In this document: positions 11,691 to 37,923 of the stretch, one piece after another
Numbering within the stretch: position 1 is the stretch's first letter
Layout: every line of letters starts with the position of its first letter
Source of the DNA: an uncultured Muribaculaceae bacterium
Lineage (GTDB): Bacteria; Bacillota_I; Bacilli_A; RF39; UBA660
Direction: 5' to 3'
DNA length: 64,000 nucleotides
NCBI GenBank assembly: GCA_964408085.1
Contig: CAYOYB010000004.1
Span: 1,057-65,056 of the forward strand
Notes under the pieces: generated by a model
Databases searched by the model: none
What the model saw: only the letters and a program-made list of their open reading frames with translations
What the model was told of the DNA's origin: nothing
Translations under genes and position numbers: made by a program

Positions 11691-11725
11691 ATACAAAAAT
11701 AATCTCATTTAATATAAATGGGATT
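11691..11725 (-). terminator. candidate intrinsic terminator at the end of the T4SS cluster
   Basis: On the - strand, AAUCCCAUUU-AUAUU-AAAUGAGAUU forms 9 of 10 bp (one C.A mismatch) followed by AUUUUUGUAU. It sits about 25 nt after the coupling-protein stop. Confidence 0.4.
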
Positions 11726-11748
11726 ATTTTAATTTATTAAAACTAATA

Positions 11749-13941
11749 CTATTCGTCATCACTAAAGAAATCATCAAAGAATTGATCATCTGATACATCA
11801 TTAATCTTAACATTACTATCTTGAATAGACTTATCATCTATTATTTTTGGTAATTCCTTTGGTATTACAGCATCTTTTTTCTCTTCTAACTTAATATCAG
11901 GGTTAGAATCTTTATCAATGCTAGAATTTTCATTAGCTTTTTTAGCAGCTTCACGTTTTTCTTCTTCTTCTATTTCTGCTATTTTAGCATCTAATTTTTT
12001 AATTATATCATCAACATTAAAGCCACCATTTGGCATACCACCATTGCCAAACAAACCTGGCATACCATTATTAGGATTAGGATTCATGTTAGAATTCATA
12101 TTAGGATTCATATTATTTCGCATTCCATCAAACATTGGAGGAACAGGCATTCCTGGGTTAAATCCACCTGGCATATTAGGCATTCCAAACATATTGCCTC
12201 CACCCATTCCATTCATCATATTTTCATTAAATTTATCGTTGACATATTTCTTTAAATCAAACAAATGAATACTTTCCTTTTCTCTAATTGGATAATCGGC
12301 TTTTCCATAGGTCTTACCCCAAGAATTTTCTTTTTCCATCAACCAATTAGGTGTTAATTTTGTTTTAAAAGGCATCATTCTAATACGTAATACAACCATA
12401 CTCCACTGAGGTAATCTTTGTAAGTCACTAACTGTAACTAAAGGTGTTGAAGCTGTTTTATCTTTTTCCTTAGATTTTTCTTCACCACACATTTTACTTA
12501 ATTCTTCTAAAGCAGCAAGCTCACTACTAATTAAATAAACAATATTACCACAGTTACCTTTTATTGTTTCACCATTTTCTTTACCATATACTTGATATAA
12601 CTGAGCAAAGTTTTGGATAATAAAACTAAATCTAATTGCTCTACTTCTAGCAGCTGTTACCATAGTTGTAACATCTTTAAGTGGCGGCATATTAGCAAAT
12701 TCATCCAAGATAAAATTTGTTCTAAATGGCAATTTTCCACCTGATTCTTGAGCAACATCAATTAGGGTTTCATATACTTGCTTAATAAATATTGTAACTA
12801 AAGAGTGATAAGTCTTCTTTTCATCTTGAACAACAATAAATACTGCTGTTTTCTCACGACCAATATCTTTCATATCAAAATCGCTATGTGATAACATTTC
12901 AGATAAATTCTCTCTTGAAGAGAAAAGTTTTATTTTTTGCTTAAATACCGACAAAATCGAACCTTTAGTATCTGAAGGTGCCAATAAAGTACTAGAAACA
13001 TTAACATAAGCTGGAGAAGCTTGATCTTTATAACTAAAGTATTGTTTCATATAAGTAGAATTTCTAAATTTTTCTTCCCCAACTGTTGTCATTAAATTGA
13101 TTGTATTTAAATTTATTTCTTCTTCTTTAGCATCATCAAATAATGCTAAAGCTAAACCAGCAAAATAATCTGCTGAAGTTTTTTCCCAGAATGGATCTGC
13201 ATTTTGTGATTTTTCATCATACAAAATATTCATTGCTAAATCGTCCAATAACTCATTGGCTTTATCAGAATTACCTGATTTATATAAAGAATATGGTAAT
13301 GATAAAGGATTCCAACAATTTCCTTTTTGTGGATCACGGAAATTAAGCAATACAATCTTATAGCCACGTTCTCTTAATTCATTAGCATTATTTTCATATA
13401 TTTCACCTTTGGGATCAGTTATAATCATTGATTGGTTACTTTTAGCTAAACATTTAACCATTGGTTGAACGGTCATTTGAGTTTTTCCAGAGCCTGTTGA
13501 ACCAATTATTAAATTGTGATATTCACCATCATCTACCCAAATTTCTTTTCCATTATTAATAAGTGGTATACCACCATAAGACGAATTTTCATCACCTGGC
13601 AATACCATTTTCAATTCTCGTTTCATCTCTTTTTCCTTAGCCCAACGAGAATAACCTTTATCTGCTTTATCCTTTACCTCAAAACCAATACCCTTCTCTC
13701 GATTAAAAATAGTAGAAGATACACCCATAATAATTACAATTAAAATAATTAAGAAAGCTATCATTGTTTTGGGCAAATTTTCACCTATAAAAGCTGGAAT
13801 AGGATTAAAACCAGCTATTTCACCCTTTGTTGCTAAACTATTAATATTAAGCACAGCAATAGCTACAAAATACAATAAAACGATAGCAAAAGTGCCAAAA
13901 GCGACCATATCTTTTGGTGTTGCTCTAAACTTAAGCTTCAT
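11749..13941 (-). CDS. VirD4/TraG-type type IV coupling protein (T4CP) with low-complexity C-terminal tail
   Basis: 730 aa. Two N-terminal TM helices. Walker A is LIIGSTGSGKTQ, followed by ITDPKGE. Walker B-like FILDEFANMPPL. The C-terminus has a 74-aa Met/Asn/Pro/Gly-rich stretch and an acidic end, DDQFFDDFFSDDE. Confidence 0.85.
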   Translation of the reverse strand: MKLKFRATPKDMVAFGTFAIVLLYFVAIAVLNINSLATKGEIAGFNPIPAFIGENLPKTMIAFLIILIVIIMGVSSTIFNREKGIGFEVKDKADKGYSRWAKEKEMKRELKMVLPGDENSSYGGIPLINNGKEIWVDDGEYHNLIIGSTGSGKTQMTVQPMVKCLAKSNQSMIITDPKGEIYENNANELRERGYKIVLLNFRDPQKGNCWNPLSLPYSLYKSGNSDKANELLDDLAMNILYDEKSQNADPFWEKTSADYFAGLALALFDDAKEEEINLNTINLMTTVGEEKFRNSTYMKQYFSYKDQASPAYVNVSSTLLAPSDTKGSILSVFKQKIKLFSSRENLSEMLSHSDFDMKDIGREKTAVFIVVQDEKKTYHSLVTIFIKQVYETLIDVAQESGGKLPFRTNFILDEFANMPPLKDVTTMVTAARSRAIRFSFIIQNFAQLYQVYGKENGETIKGNCGNIVYLISSELAALEELSKMCGEEKSKEKDKTASTPLVTVSDLQRLPQWSMVVLRIRMMPFKTKLTPNWLMEKENSWGKTYGKADYPIREKESIHLFDLKKYVNDKFNENMMNGMGGGNMFGMPNMPGGFNPGMPVPPMFDGMRNNMNPNMNSNMNPNPNNGMPGLFGNGGMPNGGFNVDDIIKKLDAKIAEIEEEEKREAAKKANENSSIDKDSNPDIKLEEKKDAVIPKELPKIIDDKSIQDSNVKINDVSDDQFFDDFFSDDE

Positions 13942-13954
13942 AAATTCACTTCCT

Positions 13955-14668
13955 TTAAATTTGATTATTTTGCTTACGAATATTATTAAATCTAATAATC
14001 ACTATTATAAGAACTATTATAATCAATGAACTAATTATAATAGCCGTTTTATTTCTAAATAAAGTATTCTGTAACATTATATCACTTCTAACCTTATCTG
14101 ACAAATTAAACTCTATTTTTTTTGTTAAATCAGAAGATTTTAAATACCAAGTATAAACATTATTTTTTTCATCAACTTCATCGGCATTATGACTATTCAC
14201 AACATTATAAAATTTTATATTAACTTTTATTTGATCAATATTGTATCTATATACTGCCTCAAGTGGAGTTGAAAAAACTGCATTGCGATAATAATCACCA
14301 AAAGTAGAAAATGAATAAAATTTATTATCATCAATAATCTTAGCACTCTCAAATAATCTAGTATATATTTTACTATTAATATACTGCTCAACACTATTAT
14401 ACGAGTTTTTTACATTTAAACCTGATTGATTATCATCATAAACTCTTTCATATTTATAGTCAGTACCAATAAAATTTTCTTGTTCACGCTCATATAAAAA
14501 TTCGTCAACACTGCCAGCATATTTAAGCATGTTACTATTATCTTCCAAAAATGTTACTTCTTCTATTACTCGTTTTTTATTATCAATAGTTAAATTATAC
14601 TCAACATCACAACCTGTAAAGATAACCGTAAATAAAATCAGTATAACAAATTTTTTTAACTTACTCAT
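13955..14668 (-). CDS. lipoprotein with C-terminal TM anchor, T4SS-associated, function unknown
   Basis: Lipobox FTVIFTGC at the N-terminus and a hydrophobic helix (AIIISSLIIIVLIIVII) near the C-terminus. Packed between the hydrolase and T4CP genes. Confidence 0.6.
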   Translation of the reverse strand: MSKLKKFVILILFTVIFTGCDVEYNLTIDNKKRVIEEVTFLEDNSNMLKYAGSVDEFLYEREQENFIGTDYKYERVYDDNQSGLNVKNSYNSVEQYINSKIYTRLFESAKIIDDNKFYSFSTFGDYYRNAVFSTPLEAVYRYNIDQIKVNIKFYNVVNSHNADEVDEKNNVYTWYLKSSDLTKKIEFNLSDKVRSDIMLQNTLFRNKTAIIISSLIIIVLIIVIIRFNNIRKQNNQI

Positions 14669-14671: not shown

Positions 14672-16894
14672 TTATCCTCCAAAGTTCATATCAAATAAGA
14701 GCGCCGGATTAATCGCATATGCACTAGAACTGGTATTATCTTGTCTAATTTCCAAATGTAAATGGTTTCCTATTGAATAACCTGTATTTCCAACTTGACC
14801 AAGTAAAGTTCCAGCTGAAATAGTTTGTCCAACAGATATATCCGCAGTCGAACTCATATGTCCATAAATAACATAATAATTGTGACCATCTCCAGTATTA
14901 TAACGAATATAAACTCTATTTCCAAAGCCTCCACCGCAACTTGTATCTCCTACAGTACACCAATCAACAACATCAGCTACAACTCCATCAGAAATAGAAT
15001 AAATAGAAGTACCTTGCGGAGCTGCATAATCAATCGCATTATGGTGCTCATCACCTCTTACCTCCCCATACTGACTAGATATATAAAAACTTCCAGTTGG
15101 TAAAGGGGAAAATGTAACATTTAAACTAGCGTCAGGAATGACATTTCCAATTGCATCTTCAAGTTTTCCACCATTTTTAACAGAATCCAATACTTGATTA
15201 ATTTGTTCAGGTGTCAGTGTTATTACTTGACCATTAACTTTAATCGTTCTTCCTCTACTATTCGCTATAGAAGTATTAAGATTAGCCAAATACTTATACA
15301 TTTTTGAATCAGCTTTAAAAGCATCATATATCTCTTTACCAGTTTCATATATGCTATTATCTCCATTAACTTCAGCACTACTATGATTAAATCCACTTTC
15401 CTTATAAACTTGTGTACGAGCAACAATCATTAATGCTCTTAACCTTTCATCAACATTATTGCCACTGTCAACAATTTCCTGTATTTCATTCTTATACTTA
15501 GCTAATGCATATAATAAAACATAATCATCAAAACTAATGGAATTACCATCGGCATCAATAACAACACTTGCCTTTGATTCGTTACTAGCTACAATTTCTG
15601 CAACTTTTTTTTCTATTTTATCTTTACCATATGTTAATTCATAATAATTTTCAACCATATTCATAATATCAGTAGCTGTTTTACGACGATTTTTTCGTTC
15701 TTTTTCAACAATTTCTTTATCAAAAGATGATAATATTTCATCAGCTAATGCTTTTAAAGTACCACTATTATACATAGTCAAATTATCAGCAAATGATAAT
15801 ATATAATTAATTTTTCCTCTTAAATTATCATTATTATCATACTCATTAGCATTATTATAAACTTTATAAGTTTCCTTTAAATTATTAACTATATAACCAT
15901 CATAATAAAAATGTTTAGTACTTGTATCAGCCAATCTTCCTAAAATAAATAAGGTAAGAGCATCGCGAACATTATCCAAAAAATCAGTAAATCGTTGATA
16001 AATACCAGCAAATACTGTAAATTGAGAAAAGTAATTAGTAATGCTACTTGCTACATCAAGCACTTCATTTACAGTTCCAACGGTTTGGCCTATCACATTA
16101 TTTGGCAACACCAAAAAACCAGGCTCAACATCTGTATCAATTTTTTTATCCTCTACGCATAATAATGGTGACATTGAAGGACTACAATCAATTAAAAAAT
16201 CAGTAACTATATTGTATTCAGCAATCAAGTATCCCCTATAACACTGTTCTTCTGTTTCTTTATTATTTTTCGTTAAAAGCGCACATCTTTTTAAAGCAGC
16301 AGCATTAACAAGCATATTTTTATTAGCCTCTACATACTGACTTTGTCCTCCATAAGTTGAAAAAAATCCTCTCTGATAATTAGTAGCAATATTTTTTATA
16401 AAAGACCAAAAAGTAGATTTACCACCAGATATATCTATTATAATTTTACTGGCATCAATATCATCATCCTTTTCTGGTTTTTCACTTAAATAAACTCTCT
16501 CTTCATTACTACCTTCATATAATAGCGTTTGATTTATTATACTTAATTCATAATTATCAAATTTAAACACTTTCTTATAAAGATCTAACATGTCGAAGAA
16601 CTTACCTTCTTCATCCTTTTCTAAATCTTGATTAGTTTTAAATCCATATAAAGATATAGCATTACCTATTCTTTCTCCCCATTTAGTAGAGTCATCTAAA
16701 ATTTCATCAATTTGTTCTAGTGTTCCAAAATAAACACACAAAATAACAATGAAAATTACCGCACCTATTAATATATACGGTAAAATCGTGCCAATAGCAG
16801 TTATTATGGCTGTTTTAATAGGAGCCGTAGCTGCTTTTAACATAGTCTTGGCTCCTAATTTAGCTAACTCTTTTCCATTGTCATTTTGTTCCAT
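14672..16894 (-). CDS. membrane-anchored cell-wall hydrolase with C-terminal M23 peptidase domain (VirB1-function analogue)
   Basis: 740 aa. N-terminal TM region. C-terminal HHNAIDYAAPQGTSIYSISDGVV ... GNTGYSIGNHLHLEIR (HxxxD ... HxH, the M23/LytM signature). Confidence 0.85.
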   Translation of the reverse strand: MEQNDNGKELAKLGAKTMLKAATAPIKTAIITAIGTILPYILIGAVIFIVILCVYFGTLEQIDEILDDSTKWGERIGNAISLYGFKTNQDLEKDEEGKFFDMLDLYKKVFKFDNYELSIINQTLLYEGSNEERVYLSEKPEKDDDIDASKIIIDISGGKSTFWSFIKNIATNYQRGFFSTYGGQSQYVEANKNMLVNAAALKRCALLTKNNKETEEQCYRGYLIAEYNIVTDFLIDCSPSMSPLLCVEDKKIDTDVEPGFLVLPNNVIGQTVGTVNEVLDVASSITNYFSQFTVFAGIYQRFTDFLDNVRDALTLFILGRLADTSTKHFYYDGYIVNNLKETYKVYNNANEYDNNDNLRGKINYILSFADNLTMYNSGTLKALADEILSSFDKEIVEKERKNRRKTATDIMNMVENYYELTYGKDKIEKKVAEIVASNESKASVVIDADGNSISFDDYVLLYALAKYKNEIQEIVDSGNNVDERLRALMIVARTQVYKESGFNHSSAEVNGDNSIYETGKEIYDAFKADSKMYKYLANLNTSIANSRGRTIKVNGQVITLTPEQINQVLDSVKNGGKLEDAIGNVIPDASLNVTFSPLPTGSFYISSQYGEVRGDEHHNAIDYAAPQGTSIYSISDGVVADVVDWCTVGDTSCGGGFGNRVYIRYNTGDGHNYYVIYGHMSSTADISVGQTISAGTLLGQVGNTGYSIGNHLHLEIRQDNTSSSAYAINPALLFDMNFGG

Positions 16895-16918: not shown

Positions 16919-18703
16919 TTAGTAACCTCCACCACTACCAAATGAATCTAATTCTTGCTCTGTTACGACAACATTTATTCGCATACGTCTACTACCACAT
17001 ACAAATAATGCTTCACCTTGATTATATCTCTTAATACTTTCTTTTTCATTTTCATTTAAATCTATTAATTTAGCTAAATCTTCAACAGCTTGTTTTTTTA
17101 GCCCCATAATTAAATAATAAGATGCATTATCAAAAATTGCTTTACCTTGAGTTATTACATTATGATCACTAAAATCACTAGGTTGCTGAGTAATAATAAT
17201 TGTTCCAGTATTATATTTACGAGCACGTCTTTGAATTTGCGCTAAAAAGTCTGCTCCTAAAGTATTACTTCCACTAAGTAGAACATGAGCTTCATCAACT
17301 GTTAATACAGTATTTATTGATCTATCTAAAGTAAGACCCCATGCATATTTTAAAATATTAAAGAATAAAGCATTTCTTATATTTGTATCAGCATTCATAA
17401 GTTCCCTTATATTAAATACAATAAACTGACTATTAGAAGAAATAGTTGTATGACCATCAAAATAGTATTTTAATTCTTTAGTAATTGGTCTAATCTTAAT
17501 CTCCAATTTTTCTAAAATATCTTTTTCATGACTTTGTTCTGGCATTGATAAAATTCTACCTTTAATTGTCGCATAAACATCCCTAAATGTTGGATAATCT
17601 TCTGATTTAAATTTTGTAAAATCAGTATCAAAATTCATACCAAAACGTCTATAAGTATCTTGGACAACCTCACTAAACATTGTTAAAACATCTTCTTCTA
17701 TATTAGGATCATAATATTTAAGAAAAGCTTTTATTGTTTGTAAAGTTCTAGTTAAAACAGTATATCCTAAACCTTCTTTAACCTCGTCTTCATCGGCATC
17801 TAAAACAACCTCTAGTGGATTAATCATACCATATTCTCCACCTTTTCCTAGGTCAATGAAATCACCATCATACATAGCTGCCATTTCTTCGAATTCACCT
17901 TCAGGGTCAATAATAACAATTTGGCAGTTATTTCTAATATGTGAACGTAATATCAATTTAGCTGCTGTTGACTTTCCAGAACCAGAAGTACCAAGAATTA
18001 TCAAATTAGCGTTATTACGATTGTGCTCCTTCTTTATTTGAAATAAGAATTGATTAAATAAAATAACACCACCTGAGAAATCAACACCCAATAAAGTAGC
18101 AAGACCTGGATCCTTAATACTATCAAAAATAAATGGATACATAGCTGCCATTGTTGGTGTTGGAATAGGTGTACCAATTCTTTCTTCTATATCTTGTTTA
18201 GGGAAGATAGGAATCATCGATTTTAATACTTTTTCCTGTTCAAATCTTAACGGAAAAGCTTTAAGTTCCATTGCTTCTAAATAATTTCGAACTTGGAACT
18301 TCTTACTTGTTAATTCTTCAGCTGAATCAGCAGTTATCATAATATGCATTTGAAAATCATAAATTTTTGATTGACTTGCCGCAATTTGTGAAATAAATTG
18401 TTCCAAAGATTCATAATCTTGCCTAATTCTTTCTTGAATTGTTTTATCATTTTCTTCATGATATCTTTGTTTTAAATCAGCTATTTCCTTATTTAACATT
18501 TTTCTTAAAATATCAAAAGGTAATGGCAAATGTTTAATAACAACCTTTATACCAGACATACTTGTCAATGACGACAAATAGCCAGGCTCAATATATTTAG
18601 GATATGATACAACTGTCATAATACAAGCGTGTTTATCACTAATAATAAAATCAGAAGCTTTAAATTCTAGTCCCTTAGGAGCTATTTGACTCTTAATATC
18701 CAT
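16919..18703 (-). CDS. VirB4-family T4SS ATPase, C-terminal 594-aa part (ATPase domain)
   Basis: Walker A is ILGTSGSGKSTAAK. Also IIDPEGEF, Walker B LTVDEAHVLL and RRARKYNTGTIIITQQPSDF. The start overlaps the preceding ORF by 11 nt. Confidence 0.9.
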   Translation of the reverse strand: MDIKSQIAPKGLEFKASDFIISDKHACIMTVVSYPKYIEPGYLSSLTSMSGIKVVIKHLPLPFDILRKMLNKEIADLKQRYHEENDKTIQERIRQDYESLEQFISQIAASQSKIYDFQMHIMITADSAEELTSKKFQVRNYLEAMELKAFPLRFEQEKVLKSMIPIFPKQDIEERIGTPIPTPTMAAMYPFIFDSIKDPGLATLLGVDFSGGVILFNQFLFQIKKEHNRNNANLIILGTSGSGKSTAAKLILRSHIRNNCQIVIIDPEGEFEEMAAMYDGDFIDLGKGGEYGMINPLEVVLDADEDEVKEGLGYTVLTRTLQTIKAFLKYYDPNIEEDVLTMFSEVVQDTYRRFGMNFDTDFTKFKSEDYPTFRDVYATIKGRILSMPEQSHEKDILEKLEIKIRPITKELKYYFDGHTTISSNSQFIVFNIRELMNADTNIRNALFFNILKYAWGLTLDRSINTVLTVDEAHVLLSGSNTLGADFLAQIQRRARKYNTGTIIITQQPSDFSDHNVITQGKAIFDNASYYLIMGLKKQAVEDLAKLIDLNENEKESIKRYNQGEALFVCGSRRMRINVVVTEQELDSFGSGGGY

Positions 18704-24280: not shown

Positions 24281-24306
24281 ATAAGCCTCCAGCATTTCTC
24301 ATAATA

Positions 24307-24335
24307 ATTATACCATACAAAAAATAATAAAACAA
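24307..24335 (-). promoter_or_regulatory. candidate sigma-A promoter inside the cluster, upstream of P4
   Basis: On the - strand: TTGTTT, a 17-nt spacer ending in TGG, then TATAAT. It lies about 27 nt upstream of the P4 start codon. Confidence 0.5.
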
Positions 24336-30159: not shown

Positions 30160-30161
30160 AA

Positions 30162-30989
30162 TTACTCACCAAGATTATTATCATCAAGATTATTATCAGT
30201 GTTGTCAGTAGGAGTTTCATCAATTACAACTGTATGTGCATTAATAAAATCTCTTAAATATTGTGTACTAACTTCTGTAACTAATTCTTCATCATCAATT
30301 GTCGTTCCATGTGGAACTGGGAATAAAACTACAGATTTACTTGATAAATAACTAGCTTTTCTTAGTAATATATGTAAATCTTCAGTTACACCAAAATATA
30401 AATAAGCTGGAGTTCTTTTTGAACTCATATCTTCAAAAACATTATTTCCTGATGAATCTTTTACAGCTAAAACTTGAATATTTTCCAATAATCTACCAAC
30501 CATGATTTCTCCATTATCATCAACAGCCTTCATATAGATATCTACATAGCTGTCTGGAACAATTGAGTTACCATAAGTAGTAGCCATACTTACAGGAAAG
30601 TTATATGGAATTTCTCCCTCTTTAATATTAGTAAATAAAGCATCTGGCATATCATCAGCACTAACAACTACTCCACTATAGAACATACTACCAGCTGGAA
30701 TTACAGTATTAATTGCTGAATATTTACCAACAATTGACCCTTCAGATCTAATAACGTTTTCTGAAACTGCAACAGATGGAATGCTAACATATTTAATCAT
30801 ATCTTTAGTAATCAAAGTTCTAGGTTGAATTGTTACCTTTGCAGTTGGAATCCTTACAGGACTAGTAGCTTTTTTAATTTGTGAATTATAACCAAAATAG
30901 ATAATCGCAATTACAAGAATTACTCCTAATATTGTGACAGTATTTTTGTTTGTAAAAAATCTTTTTATAGAAATTATAATATTATTCAT
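30162..30989 (-). CDS. CpaB/RcpC-like pilus assembly protein (N-terminal TM + SAF-like domain)
   Basis: 275 aa. A TM helix (VTILGVILVIAIIYFGY) followed by VTIQPRTLITKDMIKYVSIP...GKYSAINTVIPAGSMF, the usual CpaB pattern. Confidence 0.6.
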   Translation of the reverse strand: MNNIIISIKRFFTNKNTVTILGVILVIAIIYFGYNSQIKKATSPVRIPTAKVTIQPRTLITKDMIKYVSIPSVAVSENVIRSEGSIVGKYSAINTVIPAGSMFYSGVVVSADDMPDALFTNIKEGEIPYNFPVSMATTYGNSIVPDSYVDIYMKAVDDNGEIMVGRLLENIQVLAVKDSSGNNVFEDMSSKRTPAYLYFGVTEDLHILLRKASYLSSKSVVLFPVPHGTTIDDEELVTEVSTQYLRDFINAHTVVIDETPTDNTDNNLDDNNLGE

Positions 30990-31016: not shown

Positions 31017-31418
31017 TTAATAAGGTGTCTCTAATATAGCATCAAGTGTATTCGTTAAATCAAATGAAATTATTTCATTAGTTATACTAGAATTTAAGCT
31101 ACTAGACACTCGCACACTAACCTTAGGTGGTTCTTCATTAATATCCACTATATCAATTTTATATGTTCTAGATAAATTTGCATTTTCTGCAAAACGACGA
31201 TAAAAATTTTCAATAAATTTTTCCGCATCAATCCTAATCTCTCCAGTTGTATGATAAGTAGGTAAATCAAATGCATCGTACATCGCAGCTTCAGTAGTTT
31301 CCTTTAATAAAGTATAATTATGTTCTTCTGTATTGGTCAAGGATTGGAATAGATAGATAAAGAAAATCATCAATATTCCTACACCTACAACCAAAATTCC
31401 CCAAAACGATTCCTTCAT
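31017..31418 (-). CDS. prepilin-like/pseudopilin-like protein
   Basis: 133 aa. N-terminus MKESFWG|ILVVGVGILMIFFIYLF has the same leader pattern as the other three prepilin-like ORFs. Confidence 0.5.
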   Translation of the reverse strand: MKESFWGILVVGVGILMIFFIYLFQSLTNTEEHNYTLLKETTEAAMYDAFDLPTYHTTGEIRIDAEKFIENFYRRFAENANLSRTYKIDIVDINEEPPKVSVRVSSSLNSSITNEIISFDLTNTLDAILETPY

Positions 31419-31430: not shown

Positions 31431-34400
31431 TTATCTAGTCTTTAAAATATCACTAAATCTATCATCATTAGTAATTTTAATAGAAAAATTTCCACCATAA
31501 CTAACGGCAATATTTTCTAATTCTTCATGGATAAATAAACTATATCCTCCACCATAAGTACCTGGTGAATTGCTTGGATAAATAAGTGTACCCTTTAAAT
31601 AATCGCCATCCATGCTATCATGATTGTCTTTTCTAATTTCTTTAATTGCTGCTGGTGTTAATGTTAGACTATATAAAGGTTCTAAAGAATAAACTCCCAT
31701 ACCATTAGCACCTCTATTTTCTGTAATTATAGACTCTTTCCCACTCCAATTTTTACCTGGAATTCTTGAACTACCATCAGCGCCTGGGAAAGGATTATCT
31801 AAGTCAATTAATCGATAAATAACATTTAATCCTGCAACATCTCCACATTCTGGAACTGGCTTACCATCAACTATGCATTCACCATAATCACCAATATCAT
31901 CATCATCGTCATCATCACAAGGTGGATCTACACATATTCCATCATCATCGTCATCATCACAAGGTGGATTTACACATATTCCATCATCATCAGGTGACGC
32001 TATAATTCTATTTTTAACAACAAAACGACAAATACCATATGGGTCACCATATATACATTCCCCGCCAGTACATTCCTCTATACCTAAATCATCAACAATT
32101 GTATCAAAATGACCTTCACCGTTTTCATCAACACTTCCTAAAATCCAATATTTTAAACCAATAGGATATAAACCAGAGCCATTCATAAATTCTACAGACA
32201 ATGTTCCATCTGGTAATTCTTGATAATTATTATATGTTTCTTTAAAACTTTTATATGAAACTTCTCTTACGCATGAACAAGAGCCATCGTCTCCTCTATC
32301 TCTTACTTCACCATCTTTGCATATACAAGCATTTATTTTTTCATTTAATCGATATAAATCAGAAGTTGATATATAGCTAACATAAACTGTATTCCATAGT
32401 TCTTTTGAAGAATAATCAAATGGAGGGCCAGCCTCTATAAATCCTGAACATCTACTAAAGCTATCTACATTCAACATTTTTACATTACCAAAAGCATAAC
32501 GATTACCTAAATCAGCATTAGGATCAACTGGTTTTACTGCACCAGCTCCACAAACACCTTCGTAATCTTCTGTCGCACCAGGAACCCACGAAGCATCATT
32601 AATTAAACAGGTTATACCATCATCACGTTCAGACATAGTAAACACATGTTCTGTGTTACATTCATCATTATTGTCTACACATGCATAATTTACGCCAAAC
32701 CCACCAGCACCATTAATCTTTTCAATATCAGTAGGAGTAGAATAAGTATGCACATCAAATAGTGTTTGATATTCTAATTCTATATTCATATCCAAAAGAA
32801 TATTACCAGATTGATGGCATTCTAAAACATTATTAAATATTTCCGCTGTTTTTGGAGAAAAGCCTTCTACATTAGCCTTATAATTAGCTAAATGTTCTTC
32901 ACAAACTTGAACTTGTGATTTAACAAAATGCTGACCAAGCGAACCACAAGAAGGACTATAAGCAGTACCTCCTATAAAAGCATACCAATGTTGAGCATCT
33001 TTACCAGTTAACTCCTTTGTGCACACATAGTTAGGTTTCCAACCACATATATATTGTTCTGAATGAGTATGACCATTTTGATCTGTGACTGACTTTGTAC
33101 AGTATATAGGGCATTGACCAGCTTGACCAGCTTCTATACAAACACTAGTAGGAGCACAATGATCTTCATATTCGCTCGCATAAGCATTACAATTCGCAAA
33201 ATCTCCATCTGTAACTGGTTGTACCCCCCATTTGTCATTACAAGTCAAATTTGCTAAATCAGCAGCAGCATCCCTAGCAGCCTTACTATATTCCTGATAA
33301 TTATCAATAGCTTTATCCAAATCAATATCAACGGCACAAATTTTTGCCCCAGTAGCTTTAGCAATATCATTTTCTGAATCTTTAATTGTCCATTTGAAAT
33401 ATCTACCAGCTTCTACATAAGGATAATTATCTGGCAAATCAACTTCAAAAACTTCTTGGCAATGAATTTTACAATAGTCATTTATTTTAGTTGAATAACG
33501 AGCATCATTTGAATAAGCCACAGCTAAAAAAGTATTATCAGAAAAATCATTAGCGATGTTCATTACCCAATCTGCTGGTAGCTTTCCATCAACAATTGCT
33601 TTTTCAATTTTTTCTGTAGTATTATATTGTGCAAATTGTCCACCACTACTATTAAATACACCATCTCTAAAATAAGACGTATTATTTGTATTATCATCAT
33701 CACAATAATTTACAATAATTTCTGGTTCTAGATTTGGCACACTACAATTAGTTTTATTTCCACAATACTCTTCAAACAAATCCTGTTTATCTGCCCAATA
33801 GTCACTGTACGATTTTCTTTCAGTTCCATCACAAATTGGAACTCCTGTATCCTCACAGCAAGAATCAATAGCTGATGGTATACAGCATGGTTTACAATAT
33901 AGTTCAAAGAAATCTTGTTTATCTTCCCAATATTTCTCTGCAGGCTCACAAGCTTCTACTGTACCATCTTCACTTATATCACCAGTTTCATAACAGCAAT
34001 AAGGATCATCTGGATGAAAATTATCACCAGCATTTGTTACACAAGCTTCATATTCTCTATAATCGGTGTAATCTTCTGGTTTGCCACATGGCACACAACA
34101 TCCTTTTGGTTCATCACAATTTTTTGCAGCCTTTCCAAGCCATACTAATTGCATAGAAGATCCCCATGGATTTCCATTGCTGTCTTTAGCCTTACCAGCA
34201 AATATATCCATTCTGTTAGAAGGCTCATTCCCCGCATTATTGCTAGTAGGTTGTGAAGTAAAATATGCATATATTGAACCATTCGATTTAAGTTGATATT
34301 TCAACGAATCATTATCTTCTTGATTAGTAAGATACATATTTATCAAATTTCGATATACTGAACCACCAAAATTATTTTTATATGTATTTGTACTTATTTC

Positions 34401-35066
34401 ACCAGCAGCATGAGATGCAGCGAAAAAGTTAGCAGCTTCTGTACCAGAAAAAACATAATATACATAATTATCATCATGCATTCTAACCAACGGTTCAATC
34501 AATACATACGTCTTTTTTAATTCTTCGCACTCATTATTTTCTACATATTTGCAAACATCAAATCCAACATCATTTAAAAAATCTGGGTTCTTACATGAAT
34601 CTCCATTGACCTCCCTATCGATAATATTCTCTAAGGTAATATGTTTTGTACTCCAACTTCCTGTACCCGCACCACTGATATGATTTGCATCATATAGCAA
34701 ATTTCCTACTGCATCAGTTCCATAAGTGTATGGGCCAAAATTCTGCAATGGTGTATAGCCAAGACCACCTTGATTTACAATGGCCGTCTTATATGTAGCA
34801 CCAGGCATTTGTTTGATTGTAGATGAAGAAAATGAAGACTGCCAATAGTCAATTGTTCTTTCTGACTTTCTATTTCCATTTTCATCAACTACAGTAATAC
34901 GAACACCATAATCACCATCGCCAGAAATACGAAGTCCTGTACTAACATTGGTAGTTGTTCCACCTGTTATAGCATTACCATTACTATCAACATCCACATC
35001 CGCCTTTACAGCAAATGGTATCACTAATAAAATTATTAATATTATGTTATAAAAAACTTTTTTCAT
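31431..35066 (-). CDS. 1211-aa secreted Cys-rich protein (candidate pilus-associated adhesin/tip protein)
   Basis: Signal peptide MKKVFYNIILIILLVIPFAVKA|D. I count 52 Cys, often as CC, CxC or CxxC. There is a duplicated motif YWEDKQDFFELYC / YWADKQDLFEEYC and a tandem GICV(N/D)PPCDDDDDD repeat. Confidence 0.75.
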   Translation of the reverse strand: MKKVFYNIILIILLVIPFAVKADVDVDSNGNAITGGTTTNVSTGLRISGDGDYGVRITVVDENGNRKSERTIDYWQSSFSSSTIKQMPGATYKTAIVNQGGLGYTPLQNFGPYTYGTDAVGNLLYDANHISGAGTGSWSTKHITLENIIDREVNGDSCKNPDFLNDVGFDVCKYVENNECEELKKTYVLIEPLVRMHDDNYVYYVFSGTEAANFFAASHAAGEISTNTYKNNFGGSVYRNLINMYLTNQEDNDSLKYQLKSNGSIYAYFTSQPTSNNAGNEPSNRMDIFAGKAKDSNGNPWGSSMQLVWLGKAAKNCDEPKGCCVPCGKPEDYTDYREYEACVTNAGDNFHPDDPYCCYETGDISEDGTVEACEPAEKYWEDKQDFFELYCKPCCIPSAIDSCCEDTGVPICDGTERKSYSDYWADKQDLFEEYCGNKTNCSVPNLEPEIIVNYCDDDNTNNTSYFRDGVFNSSGGQFAQYNTTEKIEKAIVDGKLPADWVMNIANDFSDNTFLAVAYSNDARYSTKINDYCKIHCQEVFEVDLPDNYPYVEAGRYFKWTIKDSENDIAKATGAKICAVDIDLDKAIDNYQEYSKAARDAAADLANLTCNDKWGVQPVTDGDFANCNAYASEYEDHCAPTSVCIEAGQAGQCPIYCTKSVTDQNGHTHSEQYICGWKPNYVCTKELTGKDAQHWYAFIGGTAYSPSCGSLGQHFVKSQVQVCEEHLANYKANVEGFSPKTAEIFNNVLECHQSGNILLDMNIELEYQTLFDVHTYSTPTDIEKINGAGGFGVNYACVDNNDECNTEHVFTMSERDDGITCLINDASWVPGATEDYEGVCGAGAVKPVDPNADLGNRYAFGNVKMLNVDSFSRCSGFIEAGPPFDYSSKELWNTVYVSYISTSDLYRLNEKINACICKDGEVRDRGDDGSCSCVREVSYKSFKETYNNYQELPDGTLSVEFMNGSGLYPIGLKYWILGSVDENGEGHFDTIVDDLGIEECTGGECIYGDPYGICRFVVKNRIIASPDDDGICVNPPCDDDDDDGICVDPPCDDDDDDDIGDYGECIVDGKPVPECGDVAGLNVIYRLIDLDNPFPGADGSSRIPGKNWSGKESIITENRGANGMGVYSLEPLYSLTLTPAAIKEIRKDNHDSMDGDYLKGTLIYPSNSPGTYGGGYSLFIHEELENIAVSYGGNFSIKITNDDRFSDILKTR
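31899..31982 (-). repeat. 42-nt perfect-but-one tandem duplication inside the Cys-rich gene
   Basis: 31899-31940 and 31941-31982 are identical except for one position (c/t at 31928/31970). They encode GICVNPPCDDDDDD and GICVDPPCDDDDDD. Confidence 0.9.
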
Positions 35067-35078: not shown

Positions 35079-35546
35079 CTATGAGCAAGTCATTCCTTCT
35101 CCAATATAATAATCAACTGTATAATTGATATTAAAATTGTCATTACTATCGCAGAAATTCAAATAAAAAGGTTCAATTTCTAATAATTTTTCTTTATTGA
35201 TTTTTGAGAAATCAATTGTTAATTCTATATTAAGTTCATTATTAGATATATTGTCACTATATTCAAATCCATCAATTTCTTTAAATTTTTCAAAGTAGCT
35301 TTGTTTATAAGTTTGCATATTTTCTAATGTTGTGACATTATCACTTGAATACTTTTCTGTTCTTGTATACTTAATTAACTTATCAGAACTTGATTCAAAA
35401 TTATACTTAACATCATAAGTATAATCTTCATTAATAGCTTGATGTGAACATTGATGAGATTTAATTTCCTCTTTTTTACTACAACCACATCCACTAATAA
35501 ATAATGCTAATACTAGGAAATTAAGAACAATTATTGCTTTTTTCAT
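35079..35546 (-). CDS. small lipoprotein, function unknown
   Basis: 155 aa with lipobox LFISGCGC. Tightly packed upstream of the Cys-rich gene. Confidence 0.6.
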   Translation of the reverse strand: MKKAIIVLNFLVLALFISGCGCSKKEEIKSHQCSHQAINEDYTYDVKYNFESSSDKLIKYTRTEKYSSDNVTTLENMQTYKQSYFEKFKEIDGFEYSDNISNNELNIELTIDFSKINKEKLLEIEPFYLNFCDSNDNFNINYTVDYYIGEGMTCS

Positions 35547-35560
35547 TTTTTCACCCTTTT

Positions 35561-36208
35561 CTAAAATCCAAATGTATCTTTCTTATAATGAACAATTTTA
35601 ATAATTATTATTATAATTGCTATTCCAATTGCGATATATAATCCATACATACTTATAAAACTCATTGCCAAATCTATAACACTAATTTCTTTATTAATTT
35701 TAGAATCATCTATAATTCCATTTTTTTCTTTATAGTCATTAACTTTCTTTATGAATTCATTCCTTGATAATGAATGTGACACCCATTTTTGACACAATTC
35801 AAATTCTTTAGCATTATCACATACACTTAATTTATAAAAAGGATTGTATGTAGGTGTTGTTGCATATAAACTACCAACGTTTTGATTAATACAAGAATTA
35901 GTCCCATAAAAATTAAATGTATAGCTTTGCCCATCAGAATAATTATTTAAAACTATTTCATTATTAACTAAATCATAAGTTCGATAAATATTACCAAACG
36001 GATCTCTAAAATAAAGTTCTGGATTCAAATTGCTAAATTTAATTGAAAATACTGCATTATCTTGAACCATCTGATAATCATAACTAACATTAATATTAGA
36101 TATAATTTTTTTTAATCTTGCTTTATCTGTAGAAGAACAAGATGCATAAACACTATTAGGAAATAAACATAATAATATTAAAATAAGTATATATTTAAAT
36201 TGCTTCAT
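35561..36208 (-). CDS. secreted protein with C-terminal TM anchor, function unknown
   Basis: Start moved to MKQFKYIL (ATG 36208, GAGGTGGA RBS). Signal peptide ending VYASC and a C-terminal helix YGLYIAIGIAIIIIIIKIV. Confidence 0.55.
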   Translation of the reverse strand: MKQFKYILILILLCLFPNSVYASCSSTDKARLKKIISNINVSYDYQMVQDNAVFSIKFSNLNPELYFRDPFGNIYRTYDLVNNEIVLNNYSDGQSYTFNFYGTNSCINQNVGSLYATTPTYNPFYKLSVCDNAKEFELCQKWVSHSLSRNEFIKKVNDYKEKNGIIDDSKINKEISVIDLAMSFISMYGLYIAIGIAIIIIIIKIVHYKKDTFGF

Positions 36209-36277
36209 TAAACATTTCCACCTCAATTATATTATATATTTTCTTCAAAATCAACAAAAATCAACATTATTTACATT

Positions 36278-37885
36278 TTAAATAACTTTATAGACATAAA
36301 TATAATCACGAACTTTTAAAGTTAATGATAATTCTTGAGCATTTTCTACTTCTTTAATAAGTTCAAGATAATAAGTATTATCTTCATTAAGTCTTATTGA
36401 TTTAACATTTTTTAATATAGAATTATCTTTCTTTTCTGTGCCATCAATAGTATAAGAAAATGAACCATATAAACTAATAAAATTATATAAATTTGTTGTT
36501 TTGCTTCTAGCAACATTTTCATCCCAAGAAATTGTACCATTAACTTTAAGAAGAGTTTTATCATAGTTATTAATAATAGATGGTTTTAAATATTCAATTG
36601 AAGGGTAACAATCGTTTTCACTAACACAGAAGTTATAATCCAGTTTAAACATTTCACTTATATTTTGTTCATTAATTGTAAATTGTGTTTTCTCTAAAAT
36701 ACTGCCACCAAAATCAATTGTTTCTCCTAATTTATATTCCTTTGTTGCTTTTACTTGATCTAAATTTCTTGTTACAATTCCAACATTTATAGTTTTTGCT
36801 TCTGTACTAGATACACTACCACTACTATCAACATATCTAAAAGTCATTTTTTTATCAACATCATTTTTATCAATAGGATAAATAAGCAAATATTTTATAA
36901 ATTGATTATTTATATATTCATTATTATAACCGTTACCTATATCTACAAATTTATCTATATAAGTACTATCATGATAATATTTATTATATCCAACAATCAA
37001 TTCTGGTCTAGCCAAATTAAGTTGTTTTGCTGTTTTACCATTAGTCTTTATAGTAACTTCTAAAATAACAAAAGACTTATTTTCAGAAATTTTGTTACCT
37101 TTGTAATCTAGATTAGTTATATAAGTGTTACTAATTGCCATCGTAAAATCACGAGTAGTAAAAAAATCAGTTTGCGTATATTTTTTACTATATACACCTA
37201 AACTTAAATAAACAATTAAACAAATAATACTAACTGATAAAGAACTAATAAAGAAAAACAAATAACGGTTTTCAACATAAAAATATTTTAAAAATCTTTT
37301 ACTTTTATTAACACCTCTATGAACTCTATCAACATCAATTTCAACATTAAACTCAAATTCTTCATTATCTTCTTCTACTATTTCTAAATCTTTTAAATCT
37401 TCTTTAAAATTAAATTTTTTAATATCAAATCCTAACGCTCTTATGCCATATAGAATAATAGTAATAGCTTGAGCCATACTAATTACGACTAAAAAATCTC
37501 TAACATTTCTTAAAACCTTAGGATCAACGATTTTTATTTCCATATCACCTACTACACTATAAGAATAGGCAATTAAAATAAACGCAATTACATAAGCAAT
37601 AATCGTCCAAATATATAATTTAATAGATTTTTGTTTCATTAACAATAGAAAAATTACTATTAAAGTAAAAATGATAACAGCAAAAATTGCCAAATATATA
37701 TATATATCATATAAAAATTCGGTAGGGTTAGTAGATAAAACTCCCGTGTAACTAGATATAGCTATATCAAAAAAATTAATAATACGACTAAAACGATATA
37801 TAATATATACCATTAATAAAGTTAAAATCAAATGAATTAGTTTAAAATGCTTAATCAAAATTTTATATGGTTTTCTTAATATCAC
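36278..37885 (-). CDS. first gene of the cluster: membrane protein (about 5 N-terminal TM helices, one central TM, large C-terminal extracytoplasmic domain)
   Basis: 535-aa ORF with a GTG start as listed (start uncertain). No catalytic motif recognised. Confidence 0.55.
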   Translation of the reverse strand: MILRKPYKILIKHFKLIHLILTLLMVYIIYRFSRIINFFDIAISSYTGVLSTNPTEFLYDIYIYLAIFAVIIFTLIVIFLLLMKQKSIKLYIWTIIAYVIAFILIAYSYSVVGDMEIKIVDPKVLRNVRDFLVVISMAQAITIILYGIRALGFDIKKFNFKEDLKDLEIVEEDNEEFEFNVEIDVDRVHRGVNKSKRFLKYFYVENRYLFFFISSLSVSIICLIVYLSLGVYSKKYTQTDFFTTRDFTMAISNTYITNLDYKGNKISENKSFVILEVTIKTNGKTAKQLNLARPELIVGYNKYYHDSTYIDKFVDIGNGYNNEYINNQFIKYLLIYPIDKNDVDKKMTFRYVDSSGSVSSTEAKTINVGIVTRNLDQVKATKEYKLGETIDFGGSILEKTQFTINEQNISEMFKLDYNFCVSENDCYPSIEYLKPSIINNYDKTLLKVNGTISWDENVARSKTTNLYNFISLYGSFSYTIDGTEKKDNSILKNVKSIRLNEDNTYYLELIKEVENAQELSLTLKVRDYIYVYKVI

Positions 37886-37914
37886 ACTATCACCCTATTT
37901 TTACCTATTATATT

Positions 37915-37923
37915 AGTATAACA
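37915..37923 (-). promoter_or_regulatory. candidate extended -10 element upstream of the whole cluster
   Basis: On the - strand, TGTTATACT (TGnTATACT) lies about 30 nt upstream of the first ORF. No good -35 element. Confidence 0.3.

Follow-up and report, generated by a model that had tools for sequence, protein, structure and literature searches.

A chromosomal gene cluster of an uncultured gut bacterium joins a Tad-like pilus module to a Gram-positive-type T4SS and is probably derived from Firmicute plasmid conjugation loci

Gram-positive conjugative elements are said to form no conjugative pili (PMC8557374). A stretch of 64,000 nucleotides from an uncultured Muribaculaceae bacterium (GTDB lineage Bacillota_I; Bacilli_A; RF39; UBA660; contig CAYOYB010000004.1 of assembly GCA_964408085.1, positions 1,057 to 65,056), hereafter the window, carries a 26-kb operon-like cluster in which genes resembling a Tad/Flp pilus machine stand next to a type IV secretion system (T4SS) of the Gram-positive type. 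The question raised by this locus is whether the two sets of genes form one machine or two, and whether they belong to a mobile element or to the chromosome that carries them. The cluster consists of 23 consecutive open reading frames (ORFs) on the minus strand, numbered orf1 to orf23 in the direction of reading, from position 37885 to position 11749. The pilus-like half (orf1 to orf13) contains a secretion ATPase (orf7), and the T4SS half (orf14 to orf23) contains a VirB4 (orf19/orf20) and a VirD4-type coupling protein (orf23). The spacing between ORFs ranged from -26 to +79 nt, with the sole exception of a 243-nt gap between orf14 and orf15. This layout had been described in an earlier reading of the DNA letters alone, made without database searches (hereafter the sequence-only reading), and was borne out by the ORF listing and the translations.

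We propose that the cluster is probably a single, vertically inherited and chromosomally fixed derivative of the mating-pair-formation apparatus of Firmicute plasmids. In our reading the source would be plasmids of the pAW63/pXO2/pLS20 types or, more completely, of the type represented by a Parageobacillus plasmid and pHT73, which carry a module of DUF5411, CpaB, ATPase and platform genes. The products are inferred to form one envelope-spanning apparatus with three motors.

The linkage of the two halves was invariable among relatives. These were collected by an alignment-based scan with one genome per GTDB species, which yielded 143 loci confirmed by tblastn, of which the best 80 were analysed and 79 were usable. 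The 80 loci corresponded to metagenome-assembled genomes (MAGs) deposited as uncultured Tenericutes, Mollicutes, Bacilli or Erysipelotrichaceae, including Firmicutes bacterium CAG:884, several UMGS bins and one complete chromosome of 1.49 Mb. Some cluster-bearing MAGs were deposited as "uncultured Muribaculaceae" or "Roseburia sp." and are probably mislabelled public bins. Twelve marker genes had an identical order and strand in 79 of the 79 usable loci. The genes orf11 to orf13 were present in all 34 loci extending at least 12 kb upstream of the VirB3-like gene, orf7 to orf10 being missing only at locus ends, and orf19, orf20 and orf23 were present in all 48 loci extending at least 9 kb downstream. 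No locus among the 79 that was long enough to show both halves carried one half alone. Four divergent relatives displayed the same 21–23 genes in the same order, followed, as in the window, by a rhodanese gene and often by RmuC. The rhodanese gene was the downstream neighbour in 34 loci, and RmuC was nearby in 14. The sequence-only reading had suggested that the halves belong together and had proposed their co-occurrence in the same order as a check; the collinearity in 79 of 79 loci, and the 34 of 34 and 48 of 48 counts on the two sides, uphold that suggestion.

The density of conservation was very unequal along the cluster. The highest median identities to the window were observed for the motors and the core (orf7, 82%; orf20, 81%; orf19, 73%; orf8, 69%; orf9, 67%; orf23, 65%), followed by orf5 (60%), orf10 (58%), orf13 (57%) and orf6 (56%). 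The housekeeping neighbours RmuC and rhodanese showed medians of 72% and 53%, respectively. The predicted surface parts were the lowest: orf14 (44%), orf11 (37%), orf15 (35%), orf12 (32%), orf16 (30%), orf17 (29%) and orf22 (28%). The number of VirB6-like genes also varied, some relatives having one copy, and relatives of orf16 were found in metagenomes and MAGs only. As judged from these identities, the motors and the core are under strong purifying selection and the exposed parts diversify, which points to a functional, vertically inherited machine and not to a recent integrative and conjugative element (ICE) or a decaying remnant. In public metagenomes the orf9 family formed more than 7,500 clusters at 90% identity and the orf13 family more than 6,000, so that the lineage and its cluster must be abundant. 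A profile search with orf9 gave, among the matches listed, close relatives only. No description of the cluster was found in the literature on RF39 with T4SS, pili or Tad.

The same design was found on Firmicute plasmids. A tblastn search with the VirB4 and the secretion ATPase against 72,556 plasmids led to Firmicute conjugative plasmids whose maps run on one strand. They start with a large surface protein, small N-terminally anchored proteins and an ATPase annotated "CpaF/VirB11 family", and continue with two polytopic proteins of approximately 250–280 amino acids (aa), a protein of approximately 120 aa and small transmembrane (TM) proteins including TrbC/VirB2. Then come a VirD4 of the CD1115 family, a large "pLS20_p028 family" protein (VirB6-like) and a DUF5592 protein (VirB3-like), and the maps end with a protein of approximately 190 aa, VirB4 and a cell-wall hydrolase, a MobP-type relaxase being located elsewhere on the replicon. 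A Paraclostridium plasmid, a C. perfringens plasmid, pBS72 and pXO2 are examples of this layout. Hidden Markov models (HMMs) built from the window families recognised these plasmid proteins: the orf7 HMM matched the ATPases at approximately 1e-47 to 1e-56, the orf20 HMM gave approximately 1e-34, the orf8 HMM matched pBS72_16392 at 3.8e-7 and the orf19 HMM matched pBS72_20155 at 2e-5. In pAW63, described in 2005, coding sequences (CDS) 26-17 are in exactly this order and CDS 22 was named "VirB11" (PMC1196294). In the pLS20 family, gene 37 is a "putative VirB11", genes 36 and 38-41 encode unknown membrane proteins, and genes 36-41 lie inside a single conjugation operon (PMC8557374).

Layout and strand in pAW63/pXO2/pBT9727, in the pLS20 family and in Clostridium, Paraclostridium, Enterococcus and Lactococcus plasmids are those of the window. 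The succession of orf7, two polytopic genes and small anchored proteins follows the order of pAW63 CDS 25-17 and of pLS20 genes 36-41, and the coupling protein family of orf23 (CD1115) is common to the window and the plasmid systems. The pAW63/pLS20-type plasmids are mobile and carry a relaxase (MobP2/MOBP) together with replication and partition genes, whereas the window is chromosomal and devoid of these. Unlike the window, the plasmid versions shown have no annotated CpaB-like or ParA-like gene. VirD4 is located upstream of VirB6 in these plasmids and is the last gene in the window, and their hydrolase is a lytic transglycosylase/C40 protein in place of the M23 enzyme.

The missing parts of the pilus-like module were present on other plasmids. 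The best match to the ATPase was on a Priestia koreensis plasmid, within a module whose surface proteins are of the SLH/Ig type. It further holds DUF5411, a protein with a SAF domain, one of 274 aa weakly similar to AAA_31/ParA, the CpaF/VirB11 ATPase, a protein annotated "type II secretion system F family", a membrane protein of 279 aa and a protein of 128 aa near the DUF4320 threshold. The window-family HMMs matched it one for one (orf5, 2.6e-8; orf6, 2.7e-43; orf7, 3.7e-59; orf8, 8.8e-16; orf9, 1.8e-18). A tblastn search with orf6 retrieved 367 plasmids, mostly from the B. cereus group, two of which were examined (NZ_CP063416 and pHT73). NZ_CP063416, from Parageobacillus thermoglucosidasius, encodes a MobQ relaxase and a VirD4 (CD1115), and carries genes for an SLH protein, one large protein and one of 168 aa, for cpaB, for an AAA ATPase and for the secretion ATPase. 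It further encodes a T2SSF-family protein and a second membrane protein, a protein of 81 aa, DUF4320, a polytopic protein of 173 aa, a TrbL-family protein, one of 137 aa, a VirB4-like protein of 781 aa and a protein of the lysozyme family. Here again the window HMMs matched gene for gene (orf6, 2.5e-41; orf7, 2.6e-37; orf8, 2e-11; orf9, 4.5e-9; orf20, 3e-33; orf23, 9.5e-23). The 173-aa protein (20590-21111), which lies between the DUF4320 and the VirB2/TrbL genes and has an early conserved Asp and an AGDTK motif, may be a TadV-like prepilin peptidase; no PDB match was obtained for it, and it has no counterpart in the window. In pHT73 the same pilus-like module is joined to a Tcp-type T4SS and a replication-relaxation protein.

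On both plasmids the full pilus-like module, with a protein at the DUF5411 position, thus stands on one strand with T4SS genes, as in the window. The ParA-like gene precedes the ATPase on the plasmids, whereas orf13 follows the pilin-like genes; the MobQ relaxase and the replication-relaxation protein have no window counterpart; and the pHT73 channel is of the Tcp type and that of the window of the VirB6/TrbL type. Since the pilus-like module was found beside two types of T4SS, it appears to be modular. The sequence-only reading had cited the view that Gram-positive conjugative T4SSs are normally without a pilus. The idea that the combination is new, or that such T4SSs never carry a module of this kind, does not hold, as pAW63/pXO2/pLS20, the Parageobacillus plasmid and pHT73 carry it. 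The proteins that it called Tad proved to belong largely to an already described T4SS subtype, that of the pAW63/pXO2/pLS20 operons, an outcome that it had itself named as speaking against its proposal. From these comparisons of sequence, the Tad-plus-T4SS composite is a recurrent, functionally unstudied design of Firmicute conjugation loci.

Apart from the T4SS itself, no mobile-element genes were visible near the cluster. No relaxase, integrase or A24 peptidase was detected among the ORFs of the 64-kb window submitted to profile scans, complemented by motif scans; the profile scans left out a few ORFs, among them 56450-56998 and four at 58037-63045. No relaxase or integrase Pfam family was found in the related loci, and no att-like direct repeats bracketing the cluster were found. 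Downstream, the cluster is flanked by smpB, a PGA_cap protein, rnr, RmuC, an SPFH protein and the rhodanese gene, and upstream by an RNHCP protein, scpA, scpB and tRNA-Leu. The tRNA-Leu gene lies 1.9 kb from the upstream end of the cluster, with scpA and scpB in between. The window is AT-rich (G+C 21-35%), and the GC content of the cluster resembles that of the conserved housekeeping genes of the window. All 23 frames were intact and open under table 11 with TAA or TAG stops, so that the use of genetic code 4 by the cluster was rejected. These results agree with the sequence-only reading, which had seen no relaxase, integrase or prepilin peptidase, had pointed to rnr on one side and scpAB on the other, and had considered a standard ICE unlikely. 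The flank profile scans confirmed the housekeeping genes, the conserved chromosomal position strengthens the argument drawn from them, and the flanking relaxase or integrase and att sites that would have indicated an ordinary ICE were looked for and not found near the cluster.

Given the lack of relaxase and mobile genes and the same chromosomal place in a deep lineage with small genomes, we read the cluster as a function domesticated by the host, by which DNA or protein would pass between cells in contact, and not as the transfer module of a mobile element. In this branch the missing relaxase does not settle the matter: mycoplasma ICEs, too, have no recognisable one and still transfer DNA, including chromosomal transfer (PMC6030558).

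The individual genes were then compared with known families by Pfam and NCBIfam profile scans, in which orf1, orf2, orf4, orf8 to orf13, orf18 and orf22 had no direct match. The first gene of the cluster, orf1 (36278-37885), encodes a 535-aa polytopic membrane protein with approximately five hydrophobic segments and a large C-terminal extracytoplasmic part. The best promoter-like site of the region is located just 5' of it (37935-37907). The next gene, orf2 (35561-36226), encodes a secreted protein of 221 aa that contains 6 Cys and is anchored at its C-terminus, and orf3 (35079-35546) a 155-aa lipoprotein with an LxxC lipobox, matching Pfam DUF1307 at 32.4 bits and, weakly, lipoprotein models of NCBIfam. 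The largest product is the 1211-aa secreted protein of orf4 (31431-35066), with 52 Cys and an Asp-rich tandem repeat, conserved across relatives at the C-terminal end only. Its position is occupied in the plasmid systems by a large surface protein (Tie, SLH/Ig proteins), and by this analogy orf4 is a candidate adhesin. The tandem repeat has a 42-nt period (31889-31972, minus strand) and encodes DDDDDGICV[ND]PPC-like units, which may form a length-variable, acidic, Cys-rich stalk.

The core of the pilus-like half starts with orf5 (31017-31418), a DUF5411 protein (177 bits) with a conserved MKESFWG leader and a hydrophobic helix, that is, a prepilin-like N-terminus. The product of orf6 (30162-30989) is CpaB/RcpC-like, with an N-terminal TM segment and a SAF-type domain. 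It matched TIGR03177 with E 1.1e-10 (41 bits versus a cut-off of 71) and RcpC at 24.6 bits, also below cut-off, and the family HMM matched a bona fide Sinorhizobium CpaB at 3.6e-7. Homology of orf6 to CpaB/RcpC is therefore well supported by sequence comparison, being significant though under the curated cut-offs. The secretion ATPase orf7 (29002-30159) belongs to the CpaF/FlaI/VirB11 superfamily (Pfam T2SSE, 97 bits), and the motifs quoted for it in the sequence-only reading (GETGSGKTE, IEDTLELH, LLSEVRSAEA, STIHA) are all present in the translation. Its scores against NCBIfam equivalogs were all under cut-off (TIGR03819, the TadA family, 97 versus 373 bits; TIGR02788, VirB11, 114 versus 250 bits), and its best PDB scores were 63.8 bits for CpaF, 61.7 for FlaI and 61.6 for VirB11 HP0525, which places it equidistant from all three. 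Its identity to Firmicute plasmid proteins annotated "CpaF/VirB11 family" is 31-33%.

Two polytopic membrane proteins follow the ATPase. The 300-aa product of orf8 (28084-28986) is a probable platform subunit of the TadB/T2SSF type. The orf8-family profile aligned with three alphaproteobacterial TadB/C proteins over the T2SSF region (hhalign probability 71.5%, E 3.6e-5), and its HMM matched plasmid proteins annotated T2SSF by PGAP in Priestia and Parageobacillus at the values given above, the Priestia protein itself scoring 24.2 bits on T2SSF versus a cut-off of 25.2. An exhaustive phmmer search with orf8 gave 242 relatives, and none of the 18 full-length remote ones matched Pfam T2SSF. The second platform-like subunit, orf9 (27302-28084; 260 aa), is at the position of TadC and of pLS20 gene 39. 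Its HMM matched the gene after the T2SSF-like gene on the Priestia and Parageobacillus plasmids and on a Paraclostridium plasmid (3.1e-7), and hhalign gave 85% with the plasmid pair. The AlphaFold2 (AF2) model of orf9 was poor, with a predicted local distance difference test score (pLDDT) of 54.6 from a shallow alignment of 71-90% identity, and a Foldseek search with that model was empty. No useful PDB match was obtained with the sequence profiles of orf8, orf9 and orf13.

Three small prepilin-like proteins come next. The 83-aa product of orf10 (26984-27235) consists of an MKEAAGEAN[LM]TV leader, invariant across the lineage, a hydrophobic helix and a Cys-containing tail. It is a candidate for the main pilin subunit of the Tad-like half, and we infer a likeness between its motif and the one (G|ENGTLTAF) in the 81-aa product encoded by the Parageobacillus plasmid. 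The paralogues orf11 (26475-26945; 156 aa, M[KR]E..G leader) and orf12 (25968-26462; 164 aa) aligned with each other at an hhalign probability of 100%, and the orf12 HMM matched a Sinorhizobium TadE with E 0.0066, the database being very small. In orf5, orf10, orf11 and orf12 alike, an M-[KR]-E-x-x-G leader precedes a hydrophobic helix, and by its sequence this N-terminus looks like a class III signal peptide. The last gene of this half, orf13 (24954-25955), encodes a cytoplasmic protein of 333 aa; its C-terminal domain shows a fold of the ParA/MinD/HypB type (SIMIBI) and a degenerate P-loop. The AF2 model had a pLDDT of 67.5 overall and of 84-92 at residues 145-300, the N-terminal domain being poorly modelled, and the top Foldseek matches were HypB, ParA, ParF and MinD (E 3e-5 to 3e-3). 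No match was found to TadZ, Pfam or PDB by sequence, nor by tblastn on any plasmid. The modelled protein is TadZ/CpaE-like by position and fold class only.

How Tad-like is this half? With Tad/Flp (type IVc) pili it shares the CpaB-like protein, a secretion ATPase from one and the same superfamily, a pair of consecutive polytopic proteins at the TadB/TadC position, a protein of ParA/MinD fold and a number of small proteins in which a short charged leader and a Gly precede a hydrophobic helix. It differs in having no Flp motif or match, no detected prepilin peptidase, and an ATPase no nearer to CpaF than to FlaI or VirB11. Small proteins were scanned against Pfam (n=141, including approximately 54 of the orf11/orf12 family and 60 of the orf14/orf15 family, matching members not being itemised). 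No orf10-family member matched the Flp family. The G/XXXXEY motif is absent from the orf10 family, with no E at +5 and no Y at +6, whereas bona fide Flp sequences used for comparison read G-ATAIEYGLI. Pfam TadE was matched by 2 of the 141 small proteins (best E 1.6e-3). Without the Flp motif and a peptidase, and with a weak T2SSF assignment, membership of the Tad family proper is not established from sequence, and we call the upstream half "Tad-like". Of the labels given in the sequence-only reading, "Flp-like" and "TadE-like" are not backed by the profiles; "TadZ-like" is retained for orf13 as regards the fold class, and finds no sequence match and only a degenerate P-loop.

The T4SS half begins with two VirB2-like paralogues (hhalign 100%) which flank the only large gap, one per side: orf14 (24539-24895), a 118-aa protein with two TM segments, and orf15 (23933-24295), a 120-aa protein with a signal peptide and a weak match to Pfam T4SS_pilin (22.3 bits, E 1.4e-4). 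At the family level, 38 of the 141 small proteins matched T4SS_pilin (PF18895), in support of the VirB2-like label of both. The 243-nt gap itself (24296-24538, minus strand) contains a terminator-like hairpin, AGGATGAT-GAAAA-ATCATCCT, followed by the T-rich TTTATAAT. The hairpin has 8 bp and a free energy of -9.8 kcal/mol and is located 83 nt after the orf14 stop codon. An extended -10 element, TGGTATAAT, is present just 5' of orf15. Scans of this AT-rich DNA for consensus promoters and terminators gave no enrichment over shuffled sequences. In relatives, too, the first VirB2-like gene is separated from the next gene by more than 100 nt; hairpins were counted 3' of 46 of 68 orf14 orthologues, a number obtained without control and not relied on. 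It is possible that the element acts as an internal attenuator and promoter and sets the stoichiometry of pilin to machine.

The channel genes follow. The 685-aa product of orf16 (21847-23904) is an extended VirB6-like channel protein with a coiled-coil C-terminal tail (TrbL_4, 24.6 bits), a conserved FLQxISPIPI motif and a weak match to mycoplasma ICE Mbov_0396. Its paralogue orf17 (19569-21767; 732 aa) scored 33.7 bits on TrbL_4, above the cut-off of 27. No NCBIfam pLS20_p028 match was reported for either. In some relatives a single VirB6-like gene is preceded by inserted genes of approximately 370 and 211 aa without family match. The 107-aa product of orf18 (19228-19551), with two TM segments, is VirB3-like by position and topology, and its HMM matched a DUF5592 protein of a C. 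perfringens plasmid at approximately 1e-4.

VirB4 is encoded by two genes. The N-terminal TraC-like domain is a separate 186-aa protein (orf19, 18693-19253; PF26593), and the ATPase is the 594-aa orf20 (16919-18703; P-loop_TraG, AAA_10, DUF87). On the NCBIfam model VirB4_plasma, the mycoplasma-ICE VirB4, orf19 aligned to positions 96-276 (E 9e-16) and orf20 to positions 295-891. The best NCBIfam scores of orf20 were 360 bits for the Mbov_0397 type and 186 bits for the CD1110 type, both below cut-off, and it is 30% identical to VirB4 of pAW63-like plasmids over 99% of its length. The overlap between the two genes is 11 nt in the window, and 1 nt and 0 nt, respectively, in two relatives. A frameshifted VirB4 pseudogene was considered and ruled out: the split is genuine, because it is kept in all relatives and on pXO2, pBS72 and clostridial plasmids. 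The VirB4 of the sequence-only reading thus stands for the ATPase, whose quoted motifs (GTSGSGKST, VDEAH) are found in orf20, and has to be amended in that the N-terminal domain is a gene of its own.

Three genes complete the cluster. The 740-aa product of orf21 (14672-16894) is a membrane-anchored peptidoglycan hydrolase with a C-terminal Peptidase_M23 domain (74 bits), in which the HHNAID...HLH motif reported earlier is present. The enzyme at this position is exchanged among relatives, M23 being found in the window and in one relative and SpoIID in four others, with sizes of 557-994 aa. The 237-aa lipoprotein orf22 (13955-14668), with a C-terminal anchor, possibly occupies the VirB8/TcpC place, as judged by its position only. 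The last gene, orf23 (11749-13941), encodes the 730-aa VirD4-type coupling protein (T4SS-DNA_transf, 187 bits; TraG-D_C), with the GSTGSGKT and LDEFANMP motifs noted before. It scored 293 bits on NCBIfam conju_CD1115, above the curated cut-off of 250. Its C-terminal tail (11749-12300, minus strand) comprises approximately 180 aa rich in Asn, Met, Pro and Gly, then an acidic stretch, DDQFFDDFFSDDE. Such coupling-protein tails often dock substrates or partner proteins.

From this inventory a mechanism may be proposed for a single machine. The orf7 ATPase, with orf8/orf9, orf13 and orf6, would assemble a short fibre or pseudopilus from the prepilin-like subunits orf10, orf11, orf12 and perhaps orf5. 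Contact with the target cell would be made by orf4 and by the fast-evolving VirB2-like and VirB6-like proteins, and the M23 hydrolase orf21 would open the cell wall. The channel would be composed of the split VirB4 (orf19/orf20), the VirB3-like orf18 and the VirB6-like orf16/orf17, and the coupling protein orf23 would select the cargo and feed it into the channel. Since a conjugation-type coupling protein is highly conserved, export is favoured over uptake. Our best guess for the cargo, a conjecture by analogy with the chromosomal transfer driven by mycoplasma ICEs, is chromosomal DNA processed by a non-canonical or unlinked nickase.

Several observations weigh against a single domesticated machine of plasmid origin, and some of them favour two independent neighbours: a Tad-like adhesion pilus (orf1 to orf13) for mucus, food particles or cells, and a separate VirB4/VirD4 T4SS (orf14 to orf23) without mechanical coupling. 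The prepilin peptidase (TadV/CpaA, A24) was not found in a six-frame translation of the window and the 80 related loci, searched for a GxGD-type motif and for similarity to the candidate peptidase of the Parageobacillus plasmid. Membership of orf8 and orf9 in T2SSF is weakly supported, with no direct Pfam or NCBIfam match. The relaxase search covered the window and the related loci, and a relaxase elsewhere in the genome is possible. The MAG labels of the relatives presumably correspond to GTDB order RF39, judging from the record titles. The hairpin and the -10 element in the gap suggest that the halves may be separate or differentially expressed transcription units, and keep two systems in play. 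On the Priestia plasmid, the DUF5411-CpaB-ATPase-T2SSF module has no T4SS gene within 12 kb. A DUF5411/CpaF/PilC-like module was predicted as a stand-alone, uncharacterised pilus or T2SS-like (type II secretion system) apparatus in the gut Clostridia Roseburia, Ruminococcus and Eubacterium, T4SS being unmentioned (PMC9523054), and in the uncultured order TANB77, also gut Clostridia, a conserved Tad-like cluster was described, again with no mention of a T4SS (PMC11680825). Such stand-alone modules indicate that the pilus-like half can work alone, and its association with two types of T4SS points in the same direction. Against two machines, none of the 79 loci separates the halves, despite a divergence of the VirB6-like proteins to approximately 25-30% identity. 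Many conjugative plasmids show the pairing as well, in independent instances that always keep the relative order and the strand, which would not be expected of mere neighbours. In addition, the VirB2-like orf14 is on the "pilus" side of the gap, and the pLS20 equivalents are part of a single conjugation operon (PMC8557374). Two uncoupled machines therefore appear unlikely to us.

An ordinary ICE or the remnant of an integrated plasmid, with relaxase, oriT and integrase outside the window or too divergent to be seen, would agree with the conjugative type of all T4SS parts (orf23 passing the conju_CD1115 cut-off), with the presence of the closest protein relatives on conjugative plasmids, with the tRNA-Leu gene 1.9 kb away and with the fact that relaxases of this branch can evade detection, as in mycoplasma ICEs. 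It is nevertheless very unlikely: the same neighbours, rhodanese and RmuC, are found in many species-level genomes with motors 65-82% identical, scpA and scpB separate the cluster from the tRNA gene, the GC content is that of the conserved housekeeping genes, the 23 frames are intact, the core is as conserved as RmuC, and neither att-like direct repeats nor an integrase, recombinase or relaxase were found in the scanned window ORFs or the related loci. A machine for DNA uptake (competence-like) or release, comparable to H. pylori ComB, archaeal Ced/Ted or the gonococcal genetic island and serving nucleotide scavenging or recombination in a cell with reduced biosynthesis, would fit a relaxase-less chromosomal system conserved in small genomes with a pilus-like module attached. 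Type IV filaments commonly bind DNA, and weak NCBIfam CedB/CedD matches were obtained from the coupling protein and VirB4. Non-canonical uses of T4SSs have been reviewed (PMC12857230). We consider this quite improbable, as ComB is devoid of VirD4 whereas the cluster keeps a conserved conjugation-type coupling protein, normally pointing to export; the CedB/CedD scores are negligible (19 and 47 bits versus cut-offs of 600-700); and no ComEC or ComEA partner was seen within the window.

For the chromosomally fixed derivative of a conjugation apparatus that we favour, the closest parallels in lifestyle, by analogy, would be the relaxase-less T4SS of Patescibacteria and the machinery of mycoplasma ICEs. 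Patescibacteria possess a chromosomal, mostly relaxase-less, monoderm-type T4SS with VirB2-like arrays (PMC12102498). The likeness of Saccharibacteria and their relatives to the present lineage extends to VirB4/VirB6/VirB3, to a chromosomal and lineage-wide location, to reduced genomes and to several fast-evolving VirB2-like genes, and is one of analogy, not phylogeny. Their type IV pili are encoded separately, whereas the pilus-like module of the window is fused to the T4SS locus, and the present host belongs to a Bacillota lineage with a cell wall, as dacB and the M23 hydrolase indicate. As regards mycoplasma ICEs (CDS5, TraG/VirD4; CDS17, TraE/VirB4), Mbov_0397 was the best curated model for both orf20 (360 bits) and orf19 (57 bits), below its curated cut-off of 590. 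Like the cluster they have no recognisable relaxase, and they are associated with oriT-independent chromosomal transfer. They differ in being mobile, with a DDE transposase and inverted repeats, and in having a single-protein VirB4 and neither a pilus-like module nor a cell-wall hydrolase.

A bolder version, which we put forward tentatively and regard as rather doubtful, makes the domesticated conjugation machine a core organ of these cells: the Tad-like motor would build a fibre that is mechanically part of the Gram-positive T4SS, in a lineage dependent on contact-dependent exchange. The machine would then serve chromosomal DNA exchange without a canonical relaxase, or the acquisition or delivery of macromolecules, as in epibiotic Patescibacteria. 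If true, this would be the first monoderm "conjugative pilus" made by Tad-like rather than VirB2-only chemistry.

What appears to be new is the chromosomal fixation of the system, without recognisable relaxase, across a whole uncultured lineage of gut bacteria with small genomes. The reduced form, a "VirB11" ATPase with two membrane proteins, is already known since 2005 from pAW63/pXO2 and from pLS20. Reviews still state that Gram-positive T4SSs are without VirB11-type ATPases and conjugative pili (PMC12857230; PMC8557374); contrary to this, a module of secretion ATPase, platform and pilin-like genes is a recurrent collinear part of Firmicute conjugation loci. If the two halves truly form one apparatus, the textbook picture of monoderm conjugation changes, and the cluster would show, for a second time and independently of Patescibacteria, that a conjugation machine can become an organ of the lifestyle of cells with reduced genomes. 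Given the abundance of the lineage, as reflected by the size of the orf9 family, the function bears on the ecology of the gut and on the flow of genes among uncultured taxa. An adhesion pilus that merely stands beside a T4SS would be of modest interest.

Other features of the window are located upstream of the cluster. A Peptidase_S11 D-Ala-D-Ala carboxypeptidase is followed by two "Gate"/nucleoside-recognition membrane proteins (49472-51719, minus strand), an arrangement that recalls the dacB-spmA-spmB sporulation operon. The presence of this dacB-like enzyme indicates that the organism makes peptidoglycan despite the "Tenericutes"-type labels of the MAGs. A T-box leader (127 bits; 63340-63580, minus strand) is located directly 5' of three tandem tRNA-Asn genes (63071-63309, minus strand). 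Beyond these, on that strand, come ORFs of 112, 485 and 486 aa (59788-63045), the sizes of gatC, gatA and gatB, to which they are likened by size alone. A T-box ahead of tRNA genes and a probable amidotransferase operon is an unusual arrangement. Finally, three proteins with a Tim44-like domain are encoded within 6 kb on the plus strand (51796-52818, 53412-53969 and 57143-58006).

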